Origin: a phage
Sequence record: PV636258.1
DNA length: 64,000 nucleotides
Direction: 5' to 3' (one strand)
Within the stretch, counting starts at the first letter, position 1; every line of letters begins with the position of its first letter. Positions 3,945-23,896 of this stretch are shown piece by piece. The translations under genes and the position numbers were made by a program. A model generated the notes under the pieces. That model had not been told where the DNA came from. It saw nothing but the letters and a program-made list of their open reading frames with translations, and did not search any database.

Positions 3945-5329
3945 TCGAAAATAAAGAATCCCAGGACGGAATTTTAACTCCGTCCACAACATTTGATTTG
4001 AAATATATGGCGATATTACCACACACGCCTGAAGGCGGTACTCCCAAGCCTTATGACCTTTCATCGTTGTTTCAAGAATTCAACGTATATCAGGATCTTG
4101 GTCTGGAAGGGAATGCTTCACCGTCGCTGACAGCTAATATTCTGATCAAAGAAGGCTGGGATATATTGGATACAATGCCAATCCTCGGAGGTGAGGAAGT
4201 AGTGGTATCGTTCAAATCTCCTGCAGCTTCTGATTACACTACGCTTTCATTGCGAGTCAGTCGGGTAGGAAGAGTTGCTGATGAATCGAACTCTTCTTCG
4301 AAAAAGGCATTCTGGTTACACTTGGTAACAACAGACGCGTATCGAGATAGCATGTTGCGTAAATCTCTTGGATTAAGCGGTTCTTATTCTGAGATGGCAG
4401 CTAAGATCTTTGAGCAACTGAATTCACGCACCAAATTTGAAGACATAGATCCTTCATATGGGATACAAGAAAGGTTCGCTACCCCTCTTTGGCCTGTACT
4501 CCGCTCCATAGATTATATGGCCAGCCGTGCATATGACGAATTATTCATGCCGTTCGTTTTCTATGAAGACTTTACGGGTTATCACTTCAAAAGCATGACG
4601 ACGTTGTTCAACCAGGGCAACCAGTCTATGACTGCTGAAGAGAAGCAAGAGGCTTCTATTGAAAAGAAATTCTTCCGAGACCCTCAAGACGCGCCGTTGA
4701 TGCAGGATAACAATTTCAACTCAGAACGTTTCATGCGGACTATAATCAAGGCTGAAAAGAAACTGGCGCGTGATCAATACATGGCGAATTATCGGGATAT
4801 CTTGGCAGTGAACGAGCGCGTGTATGACTTTAGTACAAAATCCACGACAGCGACCCAACGCATTTATTCAGAATGGTTTGACAGCACTGCTCACCTTGAT
4901 CCTTTCCCTTTGTTCTCTGATCAATTCGACCGCGAGAACGTTAGGTACATTGAAGCGCAACCGGATGGTGCCGAACAAATAGATTACGCACGACGCGTTA
5001 TAGAATTCAGCCTCGCGTCAACGGTTATGCGTTTGCTGGTCGTGGGGGATAACCGTCTGAATGTTGGGCAGGTTTATTATATTGAAGATTTGTCGAACCG
5101 CCCGAAATCTAATGAAAACATTGCCGAGTTAAGTAAGTTATCAACAGGCCATTATATCGTCACAAAGATACGCCACAAGATTTCACGCCTGACAAATGAT
5201 TATCAATGCGTCGCTGAGATTGCCAAAGATAGTATGATCCAGAAGGTCTTACCGCCTCAGACTGGTCAAACTGTGGCTTCTACACCAACTCCGACGCCAA
5301 TAGAGAAAGGACAAGCCCAGAAGGTCTGA
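3941..5329 (+). CDS. Hypothetical protein (462 aa), possible structural
   Basis: ATG overlapping previous stop (ATGA); no motif recognised. Confidence 0.45.
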   Translation: MIENKESQDGILTPSTTFDLKYMAILPHTPEGGTPKPYDLSSLFQEFNVYQDLGLEGNASPSLTANILIKEGWDILDTMPILGGEEVVVSFKSPAASDYTTLSLRVSRVGRVADESNSSSKKAFWLHLVTTDAYRDSMLRKSLGLSGSYSEMAAKIFEQLNSRTKFEDIDPSYGIQERFATPLWPVLRSIDYMASRAYDELFMPFVFYEDFTGYHFKSMTTLFNQGNQSMTAEEKQEASIEKKFFRDPQDAPLMQDNNFNSERFMRTIIKAEKKLARDQYMANYRDILAVNERVYDFSTKSTTATQRIYSEWFDSTAHLDPFPLFSDQFDRENVRYIEAQPDGAEQIDYARRVIEFSLASTVMRLLVVGDNRLNVGQVYYIEDLSNRPKSNENIAELSKLSTGHYIVTKIRHKISRLTNDYQCVAEIAKDSMIQKVLPPQTGQTVASTPTPTPIEKGQAQKV

Positions 5330-5339
5330 GAGGTGACAA

Positions 5340-7280
5340 ATGGCAGATAACAATCAACCGACACCAGGGCAGCAAGACATCGTCAAGGTTTTGGATAAAA
5401 TCAAAAAAGAAATGATGGAGCGCAAGCAATTGCGCGCCCAATCCGAGACGAATAAACAGCTCGCAGATGTCAACAAACAACTGCAATCTCTGAAGACACG
5501 CCAGGCGTCTAATCAGGAGCAGAAAGTACCGCCAATTAAATTCCCATCGGTGAATGACATCGTCGGTGGGTTCGTTCGCGTTAGTCCTATTTTCACAAGG
5601 GACTATAGCACGTGGATGAAAGACACTGTCAGCCTTTCCAAGGACGGAAATGAAGAACTGATGCGAATCGCAACCAAAATAGAAAAATTTGGCGAAGCGG
5701 CGAATGGTCCTGTTGATGATATGTCTGTTGAATATCTTGACATGATATCAGATCAATTGGGCGCGGCCAACGAAGATAGTCTTGAACGCCTTGATGGATT
5801 AAAGGATAAGCTGGCGTTGGTCGGAGGGGAGATCGTAAACCTGACTGACATAATGCTTCAAACGCATAAGGACACGCTGGATTTCAATAAAGATGCCAGT
5901 AACGAAACTGTTACCCGCCTCGACAGCATTGATGACAAATTGGGATACATGAACGAAGATCTTAATGATACTCTGACACGTATCTATGAAAGTGATCAAA
6001 AATATAGAGAAGAAGAGAAATTCCGTCGTGGCGAAGAAGGTAAGGAAAACAAGAACAACCCAGAGGCTGGTTCTATCCCTCCGTCTGAGCCTAAACAAGA
6101 TGGTCAATCTTCTGGGTTAGGCGCGGCGCTGGGGGCACTCCTTGGACTGGGTGCGTTAAAACTCCTGATGTCCCCATTAAAACTTGTTGGTGGCTTCATT
6201 AAATTATTCATGGGGTTTGGTGCTGGGATCGGCGGGTTGCTTGCGCCTCTGAAAGCAGCAACCAAGATGCTTCGAGTTGGACCTCTGGCGTTAATAACAT
6301 CTGTATTTGAATTCGGTAAAGGTTTCTTTAATGCTAAAGAAATCCTTGGTAAAGCGCAAGTATCGATCGTTGATCGGGTTCAGGCAGGGATAACAGAGCT
6401 GGTCGGTAGTTTCGGGGATCTCGCTGATTGGGTTGCTGAAATATTCGGATGGAACAATGCTGGGTTTGGAAAGGCGTTCCGTGAACAAGTGCTGAAAATG
6501 ACCGAAGCGCCCGTGCGTTGGTTGAACTCGATTGTTGATTGGGTCACCAACGATTTGTTTGCGGGTATCGGGAAGAGTACATCACTGACCGAAATCCCTG
6601 GTAAACTTGCAGACAACTTACAAGGCCAATTGATAAAATTGGTTGATTGGGTAACGGGCGGAATATCAGGATTGATTGATGATGGCATGGCGGCTGCAAA
6701 TAAAGTCGTTGAAGATATGAAGAAAGGATTTGCGGAAAACGTGAAGAAACCATTCTTTAATATGTTGAATGCCATAACCAATGCCATGTTTGATATCGTG
6801 GATAAATTCGTGAGTATCATACCTGATGCTCTGGGTGGTGAAGCAGCCAGGAACAAAATGGCGGAAGCAAGACAGTCTATGCTAATCAGCCAAGACGATA
6901 AGGCTCCTGAGAATGCGTCTACGCCGCCAAGCAGTCAATCACCAGCACAACCCAATGCCAATATCAGCACGTTAACTCCGATGCCTTCTGGGGTGTCCTC
7001 AGACGCTGTCAACGTTACGGATAGAACTTCACAATTGAAAGACGCATACGCGGGAATTGGGGGAGGTACTCTGGGCGGGGCTTATCCGGTTCAAGGAAGA
7101 GCAGCCAATAACATCGAAGAAGTTAAATCCGCCTATGCTAACCCGCCAGCCAGTGTTGTGGTTCCAGTACAACAAAATGTGGACAACTCGAAGAAAGTCA
7201 GTACGACGAACAACTTCAATAGTTCACAGTTGGAGCCGTCCAACCGTACTGATACAGGGCGCATTCTCTGGGATTGGTAA
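5340..7280 (+). CDS. Large coiled-coil protein with central Gly-rich hydrophobic segments (tape-measure-like or membrane-active protein)
   Basis: 646 aa; N-terminal heptad-like repeats rich in D/E/L/K; central stretch GLGAALGALLGLGALKLL...GFGAGIGGLLAPL; GAGAGGTGA SD. Confidence 0.5.
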   Translation: MADNNQPTPGQQDIVKVLDKIKKEMMERKQLRAQSETNKQLADVNKQLQSLKTRQASNQEQKVPPIKFPSVNDIVGGFVRVSPIFTRDYSTWMKDTVSLSKDGNEELMRIATKIEKFGEAANGPVDDMSVEYLDMISDQLGAANEDSLERLDGLKDKLALVGGEIVNLTDIMLQTHKDTLDFNKDASNETVTRLDSIDDKLGYMNEDLNDTLTRIYESDQKYREEEKFRRGEEGKENKNNPEAGSIPPSEPKQDGQSSGLGAALGALLGLGALKLLMSPLKLVGGFIKLFMGFGAGIGGLLAPLKAATKMLRVGPLALITSVFEFGKGFFNAKEILGKAQVSIVDRVQAGITELVGSFGDLADWVAEIFGWNNAGFGKAFREQVLKMTEAPVRWLNSIVDWVTNDLFAGIGKSTSLTEIPGKLADNLQGQLIKLVDWVTGGISGLIDDGMAAANKVVEDMKKGFAENVKKPFFNMLNAITNAMFDIVDKFVSIIPDALGGEAARNKMAEARQSMLISQDDKAPENASTPPSSQSPAQPNANISTLTPMPSGVSSDAVNVTDRTSQLKDAYAGIGGGTLGGAYPVQGRAANNIEEVKSAYANPPASVVVPVQQNVDNSKKVSTTNNFNSSQLEPSNRTDTGRILWDW

Positions 7281-8427: not shown

Positions 8428-9855
8428 TCATGCCGCTTCCAACAACACCAAAATATTTTCGATATATGCTTTCTGGATAGCATAGACTTCAGCCAGTGTA
8501 TTAGCGACTTTCTTGTCTGTGCGTACTTCAACGAGACGTGGAAGGAATAGAGACTTCATGGCGTCATCGGTTTTATCCTGTACGCCATTAGAGAGCACGG
8601 CGGCAATCTTACCAATGAAGTCCTCTTGGTTTTCCCACATTCGTAGTCTCAACTCATCTGAGATCCCCGATACGCCAACAACTAAGAGGCCATCAGAGGT
8701 CTTGCAGAGGAGAGATCCAAATGTCTTGGCGTGCTTCCCTTTCTTATCGGCCTCGTTGAAGCCAACGATTTCAAGGTCACATTCTACTTCCATTTTTAGC
8801 TTTAACCCTTCAGATGATGTTCCATCTTCCCAAGGCATATCTGCGGCCTTACAAATCGTGCCTTCTTCCCGACGAGCCAAAGCGTCTTTGAAGTGTTCGA
8901 CAGCTTCTTCAAATGAATGAACAACACGGGTTTCTTGAACCTGAACCAGTCCGTCATCCCCTTCGAACAACTGTTGTATGATATCAAAACGGCGCTCATA
9001 TGGGGTGTCCACACGCTGAGCATTGAACCAATTATCATACGGCACAACGTCCCATACCCGATAGATCACCTTGTAACGATCTTCCAGGGGTTCACCCGTT
9101 TGGATAACACTGTTGAGCTTACCATTGCCGATAGCCCGAGGCAACACTGTATTCGTTTTCAGATCAATGACGAGCAGTTCACCATGGAAGACGCTTTCAC
9201 CAATCCCCGCATCGTAGATCAGGTCTTTGAAAACCAATGATAGGTTATCAACGGAACCACCCGCAATAAGAGAACCGGAACGAGAACGAATCTCTGGGTC
9301 TCTTCCATAACGACAGATGATGTTGGCAAACATGCCATCTGACTTCAGCTGGCTGAAGACGCCGCGCTTGAAGTCCATCTTCTTCAGCAAGTCAATCGTC
9401 ATGTTATCATAACGGTGATATGGAAGGATATTAATCAGACGCCCTGTACCACCTGCTGCGTTGAATGCTGCGTTTATACCTTTCTCGGCAATTCCCGCTT
9501 TGATGTCTCTGTCGAGTATAATTTGTATCAGGGTACGGTAATCCGGATGGATGTTGGTTGCAGCCTTCGCAAGTTCTTGATCTGCCTTCATCCCACCGAT
9601 CTTGCGTTCGGCCATCATATCGAGAACATCATAAACCTGATCCCAGCTACCAACAACGCCGCGCGAGAGCATGCGAGGGAATGCGTTTAGATTGAATTGA
9701 GTGCGGTAATAAGAACGCATCGGGTCGTAGACGTATTGAAGGAAATCAACCAATTCTGGGTTGTTTCTGAACGCCTCGGTCAGCACAGCTTTCTTGGCGT
9801 TGGTGCCTTTGGTATCGCGAAGATTTTGAATTATTTCTAAAAGAGGAAGCATCAT
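8428..9855 (-). CDS. 30: ATP-dependent DNA ligase (T4 gp30-like)
   Basis: 475 aa; N-terminus MLPLLEIIQNL...TKGTNAKKAVL parallels the T4 ligase N-terminus; candidate adenylation lysine in KSDGM; GGAGAC SD. Confidence 0.8.
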   Translation of the reverse strand: MMLPLLEIIQNLRDTKGTNAKKAVLTEAFRNNPELVDFLQYVYDPMRSYYRTQFNLNAFPRMLSRGVVGSWDQVYDVLDMMAERKIGGMKADQELAKAATNIHPDYRTLIQIILDRDIKAGIAEKGINAAFNAAGGTGRLINILPYHRYDNMTIDLLKKMDFKRGVFSQLKSDGMFANIICRYGRDPEIRSRSGSLIAGGSVDNLSLVFKDLIYDAGIGESVFHGELLVIDLKTNTVLPRAIGNGKLNSVIQTGEPLEDRYKVIYRVWDVVPYDNWFNAQRVDTPYERRFDIIQQLFEGDDGLVQVQETRVVHSFEEAVEHFKDALARREEGTICKAADMPWEDGTSSEGLKLKMEVECDLEIVGFNEADKKGKHAKTFGSLLCKTSDGLLVVGVSGISDELRLRMWENQEDFIGKIAAVLSNGVQDKTDDAMKSLFLPRLVEVRTDKKVANTLAEVYAIQKAYIENILVLLEAA

Positions 9856-9913
9856 GTGTCTCCAGGGTTATTCGTCATGCTATTATAACCCTAGAGACTT
9901 CAATAGAATTATT

Positions 9914-10252
9914 CTAACTCCTTTCCTTGACAGAAGTGAAAGATTCTTTCCATCCTTTAAATTGTTCGGTCAGGGATTCTTTCCCCATTTCCCCATTGGA
10001 AACGCTATGGATATATGCAAATGCATCGTAACCATAACCAGGCATTGCTTCACAAATACGAAGAGAGACCAATGTTTCGCCAACAGAAACCAGATAATGA
10101 TCACGGCGATGGCTCAAAGGATAGTGATTGTCATGGAATTTGTCGATAACAACGCAGTTCTGGGGTTCGGCGTCAATTGCCAGCCCGTTGGCTTCGCTAC
10201 CGCCGCGCCCAAGGGTGCATCCTGGGAATAATGTTTCTACGAGTGTGGTCAT
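9914..10252 (-). CDS. Hypothetical protein
   Basis: 112-aa ORF on the strand of the flanking genes, ATG start. Confidence 0.35.
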   Translation of the reverse strand: MTTLVETLFPGCTLGRGGSEANGLAIDAEPQNCVVIDKFHDNHYPLSHRRDHYLVSVGETLVSLRICEAMPGYGYDAFAYIHSVSNGEMGKESLTEQFKGWKESFTSVKERS

Positions 10253-10253
10253 A

Positions 10254-10463
10254 TTACTTCCTCATCATATTCAATAAATTAATTTTACCCTTTGCTTCTG
10301 GGGCATACCAAACGTTCTGAGAGTGCCTCTTACAGCACGGACAATCCTTGGTGGCAATTACACAGGGAGCCTTGTCCACGGCATATCCAGCGTCTTCGGC
10401 TTCCTTGACGGTGTTAAATGGCAAGTATGCACTTGTGCCTTGCCCTCCGCATGAACATTCCAT
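10254..10463 (-). CDS. Small Cys-rich protein
   Basis: 69 aa with CSCGG and CPCC clusters. Confidence 0.4.
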   Translation of the reverse strand: MECSCGGQGTSAYLPFNTVKEAEDAGYAVDKAPCVIATKDCPCCKRHSQNVWYAPEAKGKINLLNMMRK

Positions 10464-10579
10464 CAGCGTTTCCTCTTAAAGGGGATGATCAGGGCTATGA
10501 TTAACAGCATAGCTGTGATCACTCCGCATGCGATAAGACCGAATGCAAATGATTTCAAAACAAATTGAAAAATAATCAT
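10463..10579 (-). CDS. Small hydrophobic membrane peptide (38 aa), absent from the ORF track
   Basis: ATG overlaps the TGA of the upstream 397-aa gene and its stop overlaps the next ATG; translation MIIFQFVLKSFAFGLIACGVITAMLLIIALIIPFKRKR. Confidence 0.35.
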   Translation of the reverse strand: MIIFQFVLKSFAFGLIACGVITAMLLIIALIIPFKRKR

Positions 10580-11769
10580 AATTTCCTCAGTTTTGCCCTT
10601 GTGATCTGAGTTTGTTTAACACCTTTGAATTCGGTCAATTCTTTGACGCGACCACGAATGATCATATCACCTTCCAGGAATTCAGTTTCCATATAAGAAG
10701 TCTTCCATGTAATGGTATTGCCTTCCTTGGTTTTGAAAGTATACAGATACGTGTCACCATAATCAGACGAATACAGGAAAATCCTTGCTTCAAATTTGAC
10801 CTGTGCTTCTAACATTTCACCAACTTCACCAACCCAATTTGATACAGTGCGCGTTTGGCGGGGGGTGTGGATATAATCATAATACTTTGCTGCTCCCCAA
10901 CGAACTGTCGTGGAGTCCTTAACGAGGTGATATCCAGGTTCGCACATACGTTTCAACCGGACGTTGAAATCGTTATTTTCAGACAACGATGCGATGAAAA
11001 GCATCATATGATACATCTCTGATTGGGCATCTTCGCGAGCTTTGATAGCCTTATTGTAAAACATTTCTACGTCGGAACCTTTCTCCGGACGAGTGCCGCT
11101 AGAGATATGACCAAGAACCCGACCAAAATCATCACTTTTAATGCTCAGGCCGGACAGCAAAACCTGAAAGCAATTCCGCAAATAACCTTCAGTGTCAACG
11201 TAATCAGGTTCGTTCACTCGATAGATGCCTTCAGGTTCATCTTCATCAGGTGAGAACATTTCATGTATCGACATATAATAAGACATCACGGCATCAAGCG
11301 ATTTCTGATGCGGAACATAATGATGCATGCAGCTGCTACCCACGAGCATCTGTGCGCCAGATTGTTCGTTACGAACGACATATGTGTTATGACGACGCAC
11401 AGATTTGTTGCAATGCTCGCACCAAGATACGTTTTCAGCTTCAAATCTTTGAACGAAATTTGGGTGGATGTCATCTGACAGTTTATTCAGAATGACTTTT
11501 GGATACTGGTGGTTGAATTGTCCAATGATACTCCACCCACCATAAGAAACGGGGCGGTCGATGCCTTCACCAGTTAGAGTACAATCTTGCCACCAACGAT
11601 AAAATTTTTCGCCAGTGATAGAATCGCGGTGTTGTGTTTTGTATGGTTCACTGAACTCAACAAGAGGGAACTCGAGATTCAGGCGCTTGGCCGTTCTTTC
11701 AAGTTTGGCCAGACGTTCCTTGACACGACCAATGTTATCAATTGGGATGCTGAAGGTCTTGGCTTTCAT
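10576..11769 (-). CDS. Hypothetical protein (397 aa) with Cys/His cluster
   Basis: Cluster WCEHCNKSVRRHN...SSCMHHY suggests metal binding; preceded by early promoter. Confidence 0.5.
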   Translation of the reverse strand: MKAKTFSIPIDNIGRVKERLAKLERTAKRLNLEFPLVEFSEPYKTQHRDSITGEKFYRWWQDCTLTGEGIDRPVSYGGWSIIGQFNHQYPKVILNKLSDDIHPNFVQRFEAENVSWCEHCNKSVRRHNTYVVRNEQSGAQMLVGSSCMHHYVPHQKSLDAVMSYYMSIHEMFSPDEDEPEGIYRVNEPDYVDTEGYLRNCFQVLLSGLSIKSDDFGRVLGHISSGTRPEKGSDVEMFYNKAIKAREDAQSEMYHMMLFIASLSENNDFNVRLKRMCEPGYHLVKDSTTVRWGAAKYYDYIHTPRQTRTVSNWVGEVGEMLEAQVKFEARIFLYSSDYGDTYLYTFKTKEGNTITWKTSYMETEFLEGDMIIRGRVKELTEFKGVKQTQITRAKLRKL

Positions 11770-11812
11770 TTTTGCCTCTCATGATGTAGTGAAACTTTTC
11801 AATGTAGGTTAA

Positions 11813-11841
11813 ATGATAGCCGCAAGTTTTATTGAAGTAAA
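11813..11841 (-). promoter_or_regulatory. Sigma70-like early promoter (minus strand: TTTACT-N17-TATCAT)
   Basis: Located right after the hairpin, about 40 nt upstream of the ATG at 11769. Confidence 0.4.
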
Positions 11842-11857
11842 GTTTTATTGAATTAAA

Positions 11858-11875
11858 GCCCAACAAATGTTGGGC
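11858..11875 (-). terminator. Stem-loop terminator (GCCCAAC/GTTGGGC)
   Basis: 7-bp inverted repeat followed by T-tract on the minus strand. Confidence 0.45.
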
Positions 11876-11886
11876 TTTTACCGATA

Positions 11887-12189
11887 TTATTCAGCAGTGC
11901 GATCAGGTGCTGCGTTAGGATACAGTGACTCATAAAGATCCTGGTATTTGGCGCTGGTCTCGATGGTCTTGGTATAAGTTCCACCAGCGCGATCGGTAAC
12001 GACTTTGCGCAGATCAACGGCTTTGATGCCTGTTTCTTTTGCCAATTCAGCCAGGGCTTCGGTAACAAAGGTCTGTTCAGACTTGATACGGATCTGGGCG
12101 GCACGACAATTTTCTAAAGTCTGCATCATCTTTTGACGCAGTTTTGGATCAGAAGGGAGTTGATAAAAACCAATTTGTTCAACTGACAT
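11887..12189 (-). CDS. Hypothetical protein
   Basis: 100-aa ORF, ATG start. Confidence 0.45.
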   Translation of the reverse strand: MSVEQIGFYQLPSDPKLRQKMMQTLENCRAAQIRIKSEQTFVTEALAELAKETGIKAVDLRKVVTDRAGGTYTKTIETSAKYQDLYESLYPNAAPDRTAE

Positions 12190-12201
12190 AATATATCCTC
12201 A

Positions 12202-12534
12202 TTAATGACGAGAACCGAGTGGACCGATACTAGTTCCCAAACGGCGCAGGAAGAAATAAACGATACTGTGAAAACCAAACTCAGGAATAATATCAACGCC
12301 TTCAACATTGTAATATTCCTGAGTGTTGGTCTGTACTGGCAATGGAAAAGACGGAAGATCAAGCTGAACCAATTCACCTGGTTCGCAATGTATCTTGACA
12401 TTCTTACCCCAATGCCGACGATTCTTATAAAATTCTAGAGTCTGCTCTGTAGTGAGTTTGAGACTGGTTTCTCCAGACTGGCACACCTGTTGTGCCGCCC
12501 GAATCAGGTCAGCTATAAATGCAACATCCGACAT
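12202..12534 (-). CDS. Hypothetical protein
   Basis: 110-aa ORF, ATG start verified at 12532-12534. Confidence 0.45.
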   Translation of the reverse strand: MSDVAFIADLIRAAQQVCQSGETSLKLTTEQTLEFYKNRRHWGKNVKIHCEPGELVQLDLPSFPLPVQTNTQEYYNVEGVDIIPEFGFHSIVYFFLRRLGTSIGPLGSRH

Positions 12535-12597: not shown

Positions 12598-14022
12598 TTA
12601 ACCGAAATTCCAATTGTTCACGGTCTCGGCTTTCTTGACATCATTTACGTCGCCTGTTTTGTTTAAGTCATGTTTGATATGAACATTCTCAACATAACGG
12701 GCTTCCTCTTCTGTCAGGTCTCGCTTGACTTCATTCCAATCCAAGTCAAACAATATCTGTTTATCTTGATCCATACCGAACAAGAACGATTTGAGTTTCT
12801 GTTTATTGGCATAACGGTTTTTCAAGATAGACGCTCGGGCTTTCTTAACAGCCGCCAGTTCATCAGGGGCATAGAACGCCATGATGAAGTCTGCAACCTT
12901 CGGAATACCGATAGCATCTGCCAGGTCGCTAATATCACCATCAGTCGCCGATTGTTTTTCACGGTTAAATTGCATACCTGTCCATACAGGGCAATCAAAT
13001 TCAAATCCAAGCGCACGGAATTCACGCGCCACCGACGTATAATACACGTTGGTGTTCTGCATTAAATGGGCAGGAAGGCGAGAAGACGCTGATTCACCCA
13101 AGTAGTCTATAATAATGACGTCCGGCGTAATTCCCGTGGATGTCGCATAATCAAGGATATCGCGGCGATATAGTCCTGTATGCCCAGCGCCTGAAGGATA
13201 TTCCTTGATAACAATATCACCCTTCATGGAACCGTCTTGACGAGTTCGCAACTTTTGTATCGTGGCGACATATTCATGTCGTGAGAGCTTCTCTAAGGAC
13301 TCGAAGTCCCTGCGCATCATACGGGCATCAAGGCGGTGACGCCAGACGTTCTCAGCCACTTCTAGGGTGAATACGAATACGTTCAACCCTTGCTCGGAGT
13401 AACCAGCAGCCAAATCAATCAGAGTTGTTGTCTTACCCGCATTAATTGCACCCGTCACGATGTTCAGCGTTTTCTTACCAACACCACCACGAGTCGCTTT
13501 GTTGAATATCTCTACAGCGAAAGGAATCTTCGCTTCATTAGAGTTCATGTGGTCGTATTGTTGTTCAGCCATTTCCCAATAGATATGGCCAAGATAAGAA
13601 TCAAAACTTATCGCCAACGCCTCTTGTAGGAGAGTTGGAATCGTGTTCATCTCATCTTTACGTTTCTCATCACCATAGATGTTGACGGCGTGTTTGATCG
13701 CATTATGAACAGCTTTCTGCCGCGCCCAACTTTCTGTTTCTTTTACAAGCCATTCCTGATGGAATGTGTTGTCATTGATATTCTCAAGAGCAGAAATAGC
13801 TTGTTCAAATACGTGTTCGTTGAGCGAAGTCTTTTCCAGCATAATAGACAACGCTTCAACCGAAGGACGAGCATTATATTCGCAAGTGTAATGGTCAATG
13901 AGACCGAATATAATTTTCTCGCCTTCGTTATCGAAATAATCGGCTTTCAAATACGGCTGGATCTTTCTTTGATATTCTTCGTTATAGATTAATTGGGAAA
14001 GCACGACAGATTCGAGTAACAT
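12598..14022 (-). CDS. 41: Replicative DNA helicase (DnaB-like, T4 gp41-like)
   Basis: Walker A GAINAGKTTTL and DnaB-family C-terminal ATPase architecture; ATG is the third codon of the track ORF (TTG at 14028). Confidence 0.8.
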   Translation of the reverse strand: MLLESVVLSQLIYNEEYQRKIQPYLKADYFDNEGEKIIFGLIDHYTCEYNARPSVEALSIMLEKTSLNEHVFEQAISALENINDNTFHQEWLVKETESWARQKAVHNAIKHAVNIYGDEKRKDEMNTIPTLLQEALAISFDSYLGHIYWEMAEQQYDHMNSNEAKIPFAVEIFNKATRGGVGKKTLNIVTGAINAGKTTTLIDLAAGYSEQGLNVFVFTLEVAENVWRHRLDARMMRRDFESLEKLSRHEYVATIQKLRTRQDGSMKGDIVIKEYPSGAGHTGLYRRDILDYATSTGITPDVIIIDYLGESASSRLPAHLMQNTNVYYTSVAREFRALGFEFDCPVWTGMQFNREKQSATDGDISDLADAIGIPKVADFIMAFYAPDELAAVKKARASILKNRYANKQKLKSFLFGMDQDKQILFDLDWNEVKRDLTEEEARYVENVHIKHDLNKTGDVNDVKKAETVNNWNFG

Positions 14023-14028
14023 TGGCAA

Positions 14029-22792: not shown

Positions 22793-23824
22793 TTAGTCTT
22801 GCTTCAGGAACTGCTCGAACTCATCAATGGTAGCCGTCTGTTTCGCATCGGCACCACCATTATTGGCTGGAACAGATTGCTGTGCATTAGAAGGCTGAGA
22901 TTGTTGTTGGTTCAGACTTTCCTGCGCTGTTGGGCGCTGTGGTTCCTGAGACTGGGTAGGCGCATGTGCCATAGTAGAAGCACCACCTTCAACCAGAGGC
23001 TGATTGTCAGGGATGGCCAGAACTTTGCGCAAACGTTTTTCCAGATCTTCGTACGATTTGAAGTTGGCCGGATTAAAGAACTCAAACAGACTGTGTTCTT
23101 TTTCCCAGATCTCTTCAATGTATTCGTCTGTCCCCAAAGGTGCCGGAGTATCCCACTTCACATTGGTGAAGTTAGCCACCAGACCTTTCCAGTTTCCGAA
23201 CTCTTTCTCTTCACCAAAGAGGTTCAGAATCAGGTTCGCGCCTTCCCACATATCGAACGGGTCGAATTTAGGGTCAGTTGAGAACTTAGGATTCTGAGCC
23301 GAATCCAGGATTTTCTTGACGGCATTACCGAACTCAAGCAAGAAGACCTTGCCGTTGTTTTCCGGATTGTTACCATCTTTGATCACCAGGATGTTGGCGT
23401 AGTATTTGGTGTCCGGCAGACGTTTTTTGAGAACTGTTTTCAGCTTTTCATCATTCGTTTCTTTCTGTTGTGCCCACAGAGGACGGTCATGGTCGCGAAC
23501 AGGATCATCGTTACCGAAAGTCTGAGGAGAGTTTTCGATATACCAACCACCAGCGCCCTGGAATGCGTGTTTCATGATCATGGCACACGGAGTTAACACA
23601 GCATCTTCAGGGATGGTGCCTTCTTCTTGAGCCTTCATGTCCACCAAAGGGATCGGCAGGAAACGAATGATGTTTTCAGAAGTACCCTTGTCATTCCAGG
23701 TCCACTTCCAGATGCGCGGGTCACGACCGCCACCAACACGCTGGCCTTGCTGAGCGAGTCGCTGTTGCATAGCTTCGGCTTGTTGGCCACGAGATTGTTT
23801 AAGACGATCAAATAAATTACCCAT
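22793..23824 (-). CDS. 32: Single-stranded DNA-binding protein (T4 gp32-like)
   Basis: 343 aa; IRFLPIP, WYIE, YANILVIKD..PEN.GKVFLLEFG and WEGANLIL parallel T4 gp32 blocks; acidic C-terminus. Confidence 0.75.
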   Translation of the reverse strand: MGNLFDRLKQSRGQQAEAMQQRLAQQGQRVGGGRDPRIWKWTWNDKGTSENIIRFLPIPLVDMKAQEEGTIPEDAVLTPCAMIMKHAFQGAGGWYIENSPQTFGNDDPVRDHDRPLWAQQKETNDEKLKTVLKKRLPDTKYYANILVIKDGNNPENNGKVFLLEFGNAVKKILDSAQNPKFSTDPKFDPFDMWEGANLILNLFGEEKEFGNWKGLVANFTNVKWDTPAPLGTDEYIEEIWEKEHSLFEFFNPANFKSYEDLEKRLRKVLAIPDNQPLVEGGASTMAHAPTQSQEPQRPTAQESLNQQQSQPSNAQQSVPANNGGADAKQTATIDEFEQFLKQD

Positions 23825-23896
23825 TTTAATATTCCTCTATAATCCGCCCCTTCGGGCTATTCTGTAAATGTATTTGTCAATTATTCCGACGGTGTA

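Follow-up and report, generated by a model that had tools for sequence, protein, structure and literature searches.

The window analysed here is a 64,000-nucleotide stretch of phage DNA (sequence record PV636258.1). At positions 10254 to 11769 it holds three consecutive minus-strand genes encoding proteins of 397, 38 and 69 amino acids (aa). Positions 9800-12300 match Salmonella phage Chennai (MN953776; Kuttervirus, Ackermannviridae) at 100% identity; for many Vi01-like phages the figure is 96-99%. In the Chennai GenBank record, the genes are named chennai_091 (397 aa, hypothetical), chennai_090 (38 aa, 'putative membrane protein') and chennai_089 (69 aa, hypothetical). The trio is flanked by genes for a gp41-type helicase and UvsX on one side and for DNA ligase and a gp59 loader on the other; moving upstream from the 397-aa gene, a small regulator-like gene (C092) precedes the helicase and UvsX genes. 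The coordinates, strands and lengths given in a preliminary description of this region, together with a 4-nt and a 1-nt overlap between the genes, were reproduced when we checked the sequence. The genes and their matches to PHROG profiles are:

10576..11769, minus strand: 397-aa gene chennai_091; phrog_2319, E-value 3e-171, full length
10463..10579, minus strand: 38-aa gene chennai_090; phrog_6569, E-value 6e-26, full length
10254..10463, minus strand: 69-aa gene chennai_089; phrog_4789, E-value 8e-44, full length

All three matches span the whole protein and the whole profile. Because each protein matches its own PHROG end to end, and because the codon differences in the smallest gene are mostly synonymous, these open reading frames (ORFs) are real genes. 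Between Chennai and Dickeya phage LIMEstone1, the 38-aa ORF is 84% identical with 11 synonymous and 6 non-synonymous codon differences, the latter mostly clustered at the N-terminal end of the peptide. The preliminary description had treated this ORF as hidden and unannotated; it is in fact annotated in the Chennai record and in many relatives, and has its own PHROG.

The junctions within the trio are tight. The 397-aa gene overlaps the 38-aa gene by 4 nt (ATGA), the 38-aa gene overlaps the 69-aa gene by 1 nt (TGATG), and at each junction a GAGGA-type Shine-Dalgarno sequence lies within the end of the upstream gene. On the minus strand, these sequences are found at 10463-10476 (AAGAGGAAA) and 10576-10590 (GAGGAAA), where they encode, respectively, KRKR at the C-terminus of the peptide and LRKL at that of the 397-aa protein. 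AAGAGGAAACGC both codes for the KRKR tail and serves as the Shine-Dalgarno sequence of the 69-aa gene. As the two C-termini are encoded by the ribosome-binding signals of the next genes, both are under double constraint. This placement of each Shine-Dalgarno sequence inside the upstream gene makes co-transcription and translational coupling of the three genes almost certain.

The succession of three coupled genes had been presented as notable. However, of 64 same-strand junctions in 50 kb of the Chennai genome, 21 are overlaps, and in 13 of these the overlap is exactly 1 or 4 nt. Several overlapping genes in succession are also found at other places in the genome. Overlapping coupled genes of tailed phages have the same overlap types (ATGA and TGATG) with the Shine-Dalgarno sequence in the upstream gene, and the trio is no different from them. 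Since a third of the junctions in this genome overlap, the overlaps by themselves say nothing about stoichiometric complexes. The genes of the trio are uncharacterised, and they form a tightly packed phage transcription unit of the ordinary kind.

Two features precede the 397-aa gene:

11855..11878, minus strand: 10-bp GC-rich hairpin directly after the C092 stop; folding energy -15.5 kcal/mol, z -4.4
11813..11841, minus strand: promoter-like TTTACT-17-TATCAT between the hairpin and the 397-aa gene; 9/12 in a consensus scan

None of 200 shuffled sequences was as stable as the hairpin, which we consider a terminator-like boundary of the transcription unit. It has a weak U-tail and was missed by a consensus terminator scan; a terminator is annotated at the equivalent place in the records of Klebsiella phage Magnus and LIMEstone1. 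For the promoter-like site the evidence is weak: its score of 9/12 is not above the shuffled background in the same scan, and the LIMEstone1 record has a putative middle promoter at the equivalent place. Given the hairpin after C092 and the terminator and middle promoter annotated in relatives, the 397-aa gene probably opens a transcription unit running to the ligase. The trio would then start an ordinary early/middle unit in the Kuttervirus replication-gene block, in the order hairpin, promoter, 397-aa gene, 38-aa gene, 69-aa gene, a 112-aa gene and DNA ligase, and its overlaps would represent the standard phage arrangement in which the end of one gene contains the Shine-Dalgarno sequence of the next.

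The AlphaFold2 model of the 397-aa protein (mean predicted local distance difference test score 81) consists of an N-terminal alpha/beta domain, a Cys-bearing hairpin-hairpin-helix, a helical domain and a C-terminal barrel. The last three correspond to:

11314..11433, minus strand: residues 113-152, predicted zinc module with a knuckle C117-E-H119-C120, a second hairpin and a helix from C147
10867..11298, minus strand: residues 158-301, helical domain
10579..10836, minus strand: residues 312-397, predicted C-terminal OB fold

The residues of the Cys/His cluster to which the preliminary description drew attention (W-C117-E-H119-C120, H127-N128 and C147-M-H149-H150) are all present, but the cluster as a whole is not conserved. 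Among 164 full-length members of the family, the set used for all conservation counts, C117, C120 and C147 are invariant (164/164, as is G144) and H119 is nearly so (158/164), whereas conservation is lacking at H127, N128, H149 and H150, with mostly Lys at position 149 and mostly Asp at position 150. In the model, the turn of the hairpin formed by strands 115-117 and 122-124 carries the CxxC, and C147 starts the helix formed by residues 145-150. This layout appears to be that of a treble-clef or knuckle zinc site. Metal binding by the 397-aa protein, proposed earlier, is plausible because the invariant three-Cys site lies in a knuckle-plus-helix arrangement.

The C-terminal domain is predicted to be a five-stranded closed beta-barrel that can be superimposed on known OB domains. 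Within it, W355, K376 and R391 are present in at least 160 of the 164 members and T387 is near-invariant too; the first three residues hint at binding of single-stranded DNA (ssDNA) or RNA. T4 gp32 is a zinc-containing OB-fold single-stranded DNA-binding protein (SSB), and RecO combines OB, helical and zinc domains. Both resemble the 397-aa protein, as predicted here, in pairing an OB fold with a structural zinc site, and both belong to phage or bacterial replication and recombination. Other OB-fold ssDNA-binding modules (the DNA-binding domains of RPA, SSB/PriB and the RecG wedge) have no sequence similarity to the 397-aa protein; unlike them, its OB fold is a single copy at the protein end.

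Database searches did not assign the protein to a family with a name. Pfam, NCBIfam and PADLOC scans of the 397-, 38-, 69- and 112-aa proteins gave no match, and a Pfam scan of 47 diverged members of the 397-aa family, along with longer members and variants, returned noise only. Neither the protein alone nor a 47-sequence profile found a homologue among PDB sequences; the best hit was ribosomal protein L36 (E-value 1.1), which is similar over a short CxxC...RR stretch. Foldseek against BFVD retrieved uncharacterised homologues only, and no known fold matched the 305 residues outside the OB domain. Word-indexed homologue searches with the 69-aa protein and with the 397-aa family profile returned close relatives or unnamed proteins only. 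Literature searches on the 397-aa family, Ackermannviridae OB/zinc proteins, Kuttervirus transcriptomes and phage ligase zinc fingers turned up no description.

The preliminary description had called the 397-aa protein an enzyme, yet no catalytic family was matched by sequence or fold, and the sole recognisable domain is the OB fold, which is of a nucleic-acid-binding type. Its statement that a nucleotide-binding motif is missing held up, as Walker A (GxxxxGK[ST]), GxGxxG and the ligase KxDG motif were all absent in regular-expression searches. Several specific identities were considered and rejected. A P-loop NTPase or ATP-dependent ligase was discarded on the absence of Walker A, of KxDG and of any Pfam match. 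An HNH or His-Me finger nuclease was discarded since there was no profile match and the protein lacks the beta-beta-alpha-metal motif with its conserved Asn. A primase-polymerase with a UL52-like CHC2 finger was dropped on motif-conservation, domain-order or fold grounds. A RecO-like mediator would have an N-terminal OB domain, a helical domain and a C-terminal Cys4 finger, an order not found here. A T4 gp32-type SSB or gp32 paralogue was rejected on the lack of a Pfam, NCBIfam or PDB sequence match; a separate gp32-type SSB gene is annotated at 22799..23830 of the window.

The 69-aa protein carries CSCGG and CPCC motifs, as had been noted. In seven diverged homologues (29-81% identity), C3, C5, C41 and C44 are invariant whereas C34 and C43 are not, and it is this invariant CxC...CxxC that makes metal binding plausible for this protein also, again in line with the earlier proposal. 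Beyond Ackermannviridae, homologues occur only in close Vibrio relatives, and the protein has neither a Pfam match nor a significant PDB match. Two genes follow it in the window:

9914..10252, minus strand: 112-aa gene chennai_088, between the Cys4 gene and the ligase; phrog_5022, E-value 1e-63
8428..9855, minus strand: ATP-dependent DNA ligase chennai_087; PF01068, E-value 1e-14; phrog_114, E-value 1e-136

In every genus and lineage examined, the 69-aa gene lies upstream of the ligase. It is directly upstream in Erwinia phage Bue1, LIMEstone1 and Vibrio phage D531, and one or two extra small genes intervene in Kuttervirus and Taipeivirus. In Serratia phage phiMAM1 (JX878496 132759-134456), the Cys4 domain and the ligase form one continuous 565-aa ORF, in which 68 N-terminal residues homologous to the 69-aa protein are followed by an 18-residue linker and the ligase, with the adenylation domain at 253-440. 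Serratia phage Kevin (4501-6198 of the locus examined) has the same fusion, annotated as one ligase coding sequence, and the fused 1698-nt region is 82-100% identical at the nucleotide level in seven records of five Miltonvirus phages. The 69-aa protein is therefore linked to ligase across lineages, by fusion or by adjacency.

Gene fusion is a classical sign of shared function, and the Miltonvirus arrangement suggests that the Cys4 protein and the ligase share one. The 69-aa protein is probably a zinc-ribbon accessory of DNA ligase. It is more likely to be this than a partner of the 397-aa protein, as the preliminary description had it, since its gene tracks the ligase: in Bue1 the 69-aa homologue lies 2.7 kb and four genes away from the 397-aa homologue, and in phiMAM1 five annotated genes separate the 397-aa homologue from the fused gene.

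Comparable modules occur in other ligases. The zinc finger of NAD-dependent LigA positions the other domains on DNA (PMC7470946). Unlike LigA, the Chennai-type ligase is ATP-dependent and T4-gp30-like, and the module associated with it is N-terminal. Human ligase III has an N-terminal zinc finger, an accessory DNA-positioning module. In Miltonvirus, as with the Cys4 finger of LigA and the finger of ligase III, a small Cys-rich module is attached to the ligase; elsewhere it is encoded next to it, and in most Ackermannviridae, unlike ligase-borne fingers, it is free as a 69-73-aa protein. The module showed no sequence similarity to known ligase fingers.

Residues 5-33 of the 38-aa peptide (~29 residues) have a mean Kyte-Doolittle hydropathy of 2.18 and are followed by the basic KRKR. 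With one hydrophobic segment, flanking charges and coding selection, the peptide has the attributes of a small single-pass membrane protein. Thus, the earlier proposal of a hydrophobic membrane peptide is credible, whereas its further suggestion that the peptide is a partner in a complex is unsupported.

We give about an even chance to a joint reading in which the 397-aa protein is an OB-fold DNA binder stabilised by zinc, the 38-aa peptide a small membrane protein and the 69-aa protein a Cys4 accessory of the ligase. The 397-aa protein would most likely be a non-catalytic nucleic-acid binder, probably of ssDNA, acting through its C-terminal OB fold, with a knuckle-plus-helix module stabilised by the invariant Cys3(+His/Asp) zinc site, and its role would lie in the replication, recombination or repair of phage DNA. 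The 69-aa Cys4 zinc ribbon would work with the ligase, as a separate protein here and as an N-terminal ligase domain in Miltonvirus, probably in DNA or nick binding by analogy with the zinc fingers of other ligases. The 38-aa product would be a bona fide small membrane protein. The data show that the genes are real, how they are conserved and arranged, the fusion with the ligase, the domain architecture and how often junctions in this genome overlap; binding of zinc and of ssDNA, the functional tie to the ligase and co-transcription are the steps that we infer.

Several observations weigh against this reading. Only three Cys residues of the presumed zinc site are invariant, and the candidates for a fourth ligand are D/H/E150, H119 or H87. 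Conserved [E/D]118-H119, R126 and H87 adjoin the Cys site and could form an active site. None of the three proteins has a solved or characterised homologue. The ligase link comes from fusion and synteny only, and synteny in Ackermannviridae is generally high. Finally, in temperate Clostridia phages the family member comes first on the side facing a CI-like repressor, a position that equally suits a regulator or an anti-defence protein.

The 397-aa protein could instead form a pair with the membrane peptide, for example tethering the DNA-binding protein or replicating DNA to the inner membrane, with the 69-aa protein serving the ligase. In each of the five Ackermannviridae genera that we examined (Kuttervirus, Limestonevirus, Taipeivirus, Miltonvirus and Nezavisimistyvirus), a transmembrane (TM) ORF lies 3' of the large gene, even where the large proteins are only 35% identical, and its position and coupling are conserved across them. 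It is 38 aa long in Chennai, Det7, LIMEstone1 and Kevin and 46 aa in Magnus, and two further examples are unannotated:

4222-4314 of the phiMAM1 locus examined, plus strand: 30-aa TM ORF after the large gene
5152-5469 of the Bue1 locus examined, minus strand: 105-aa ORF after the large gene, with an N-terminal TM segment and an ATGA overlap

In D531, two TM proteins are encoded directly downstream of the 397-aa homologue. However, the whole region is syntenic in the family, so adjacency is weak evidence; the downstream TM ORFs differ greatly in length, from 30 to 129 aa, and need not all be homologous; and no TM gene follows the 397-aa relatives examined outside the Ackermannviridae/D531 lineage. 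A partnership of the two proteins is possible, and family-wide synteny would explain the conserved ORF equally well. Overall, we regard such a pair as unlikely.

Compared with a non-catalytic OB-fold protein, an enzyme also seems unlikely to us. It might be a Zn/Mg nuclease on ssDNA, with an active site made up of [E/D]118-H119, H87, R126 and D150 and an OB domain that holds the substrate. Polar residues near the Cys site are indeed strongly conserved: besides H119, R126 is present in 162 of the 164 members, position 118 is acidic in 144 and position 150 is D, H or E in 141. Furthermore, an HNH-like spacing pattern can be written for the protein, and its N-terminal fold matches nothing known. 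On the other hand, no nuclease family was found in Pfam at E<=0.1 for the protein and 46 diverged relatives, H119 lies inside the CxxC knuckle and not at the end of the strand preceding a beta-beta-alpha helix, and the lack of conservation extends to N128 and H149.

The distribution of the family bears on both the preferred OB-fold DNA-binding protein and a further alternative. With a profile of 19 Ackermannviridae sequences, the number of matching representative clusters is 8358 at E<=1e-3 and falls to 4284 at E<=1e-10, and the best 150 clusters are mostly full length, at 330-460 aa. Isolates carrying a member include all Ackermannviridae genera sampled, Vibrio schizoT4-like and 157-kb phages, Aeromonas and Cronobacter T4-like phages, the jumbo phages RsoM2USA and SCTP-2, Rhodococcus phage Finch, Streptomyces phage Zuko and Caulobacter phage CcrColossus; members are 'hypothetical' in every record listed. 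Neither the 38-aa nor the 69-aa gene was present beside the relatives examined outside Ackermannviridae (in Straboviridae, jumbo and temperate phages).

The gene neighbourhoods vary. D531 has genes for SSB and DNA end protector on one side of the homologue and for ligase and helicase loader on the other. In Aeromonas phage PX29 and Cronobacter phage S13, a DprA-like gene (5111-5656 and 4891-5370, respectively, in locus coordinates) is directly 3' of the family member; Pfam support for this assignment is weak (E-value 6e-4), and the two share ...GGTRTA...VPVYNL. The two genes form a conserved pair in these T4-like phages of different hosts, which was not seen in Ackermannviridae. Other viral contigs have the family member beside an SNF2 helicase gene and a VRR-NUC-like gene, the latter recognised by eye and without a Pfam match. 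In IMG/VR contigs of 30-50 kb and 38-45% GC, it is the first plus-strand gene, facing genes for a CI-like HTH_3 repressor and an integrase, and genes for small helix-turn-helix (HTH) proteins come next. There is a prophage copy in Hominiventricola filiformis (Lachnospiraceae) and a relative in an Oscillospiraceae metagenome-assembled genome. In ~30+ IMG/VR loci and in H. filiformis, transcription away from the CI-like repressor and integrase begins with the phrog_2319 relative, and Cro-like or DUF739-like HTH genes come after it, not before it. The common thread of these contexts appears to be early expression and DNA transactions.

The position opposite the repressor and integrase, the Hominiventricola prophage copy and its Oscillospiraceae relative, the varying context in T4-like phages and weak matches of the helical domain to sigma region 2 would all be in keeping with an early regulator or counter-defence factor (for example an anti-repressor, an ssDNA shield or a blocker of a host nuclease or sensor) that has no part in replication or recombination. 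This is decidedly unlikely in our view, as PADLOC and known anti-defence or anti-repressor families gave no match and, in lytic phages, the family member sits among replication and recombination genes. The arrangement that the preliminary description favoured, one stoichiometric complex of a metal-dependent 397-aa enzyme anchored or regulated by the 38- and 69-aa proteins, is highly improbable: although the genes are tightly coupled with a Shine-Dalgarno sequence each, keep the same order and overlaps in LIMEstone1 and Magnus and are accompanied by a TM ORF in five genera down to 35% identity, the 69-aa gene is displaced in Bue1 and phiMAM1, an extra gene splits the two small genes in Det7 types, homologues in Straboviridae, jumbo and temperate phages lack both small genes, a third of the genome's junctions overlap and there is no evidence of an enzyme.

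Returning to the OB-fold protein and the ligase accessory, what is new is only the unassigned family and the split or fused ligase module, as the genes themselves are already deposited and annotated as hypothetical. A three-gene complex matters little because the coupling is generic. A bolder version of the joint reading, which we put forward tentatively and which is more probably wrong than right when its parts are taken together, has three elements. First, phrog_2319 would be a very large and so far undescribed phage family whose members bind DNA, combine a zinc site with an OB fold and have a new fold at the N-terminus. Second, it would act at the very start of phage DNA metabolism, as suggested by two positions: in temperate Clostridia phages it is the first early gene across from the repressor, and in Ackermannviridae, where its partner would be a dedicated membrane micro-protein, it belongs to the replication block. 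Third, the 69-aa protein would be a detachable zinc-finger subunit of a T4-type ATP-dependent ligase, free in most genera and fused in Miltonvirus. If true, such a free or fused subunit would be a ligase architecture not yet described.

The 397-aa family comprises thousands of clusters with no Pfam model and no solved relative. It reaches from Ackermannviridae and T4-like Vibrio, Aeromonas and Cronobacter phages to jumbo phages, actinophages and gut Clostridia prophages, and a single characterisation would annotate much phage dark matter. The relation between the split or fused Cys4 mini-protein and the ligase yields the testable idea that the mini-protein stimulates or targets nick sealing, which could interest those who use or engineer phage ligases.

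The region of the three genes seems to tolerate insertions. In Det7-type Kutterviruses, an extra 66-aa gene (DET7_119; 2164-2364 of the Det7 locus examined) separates the 38-aa gene from the 69-aa gene and amounts to a 200-bp insertion when compared with Chennai. Several Kutterviruses have annotated homing or HNH endonuclease genes next to the genes of this region, and F-LimIV lies just upstream in LIMEstone1. A local tblastn search over nine related loci found a relative of the 112-aa gene in Det7 only, so that among the relatives checked it is limited to Kuttervirus; in its place, the Taipeivirus phage Magnus has two different small genes, one of which encodes a 33-aa membrane peptide. Two start codons are ambiguous. 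The longest ligase ORF (ATG ATG, 475 aa) begins one codon upstream of the GenBank start at 9852, and the longest helicase ORF (TTG, 476 aa; 12598-14028, minus strand) begins two codons upstream of the GenBank start at 14022; both ambiguities are minor.

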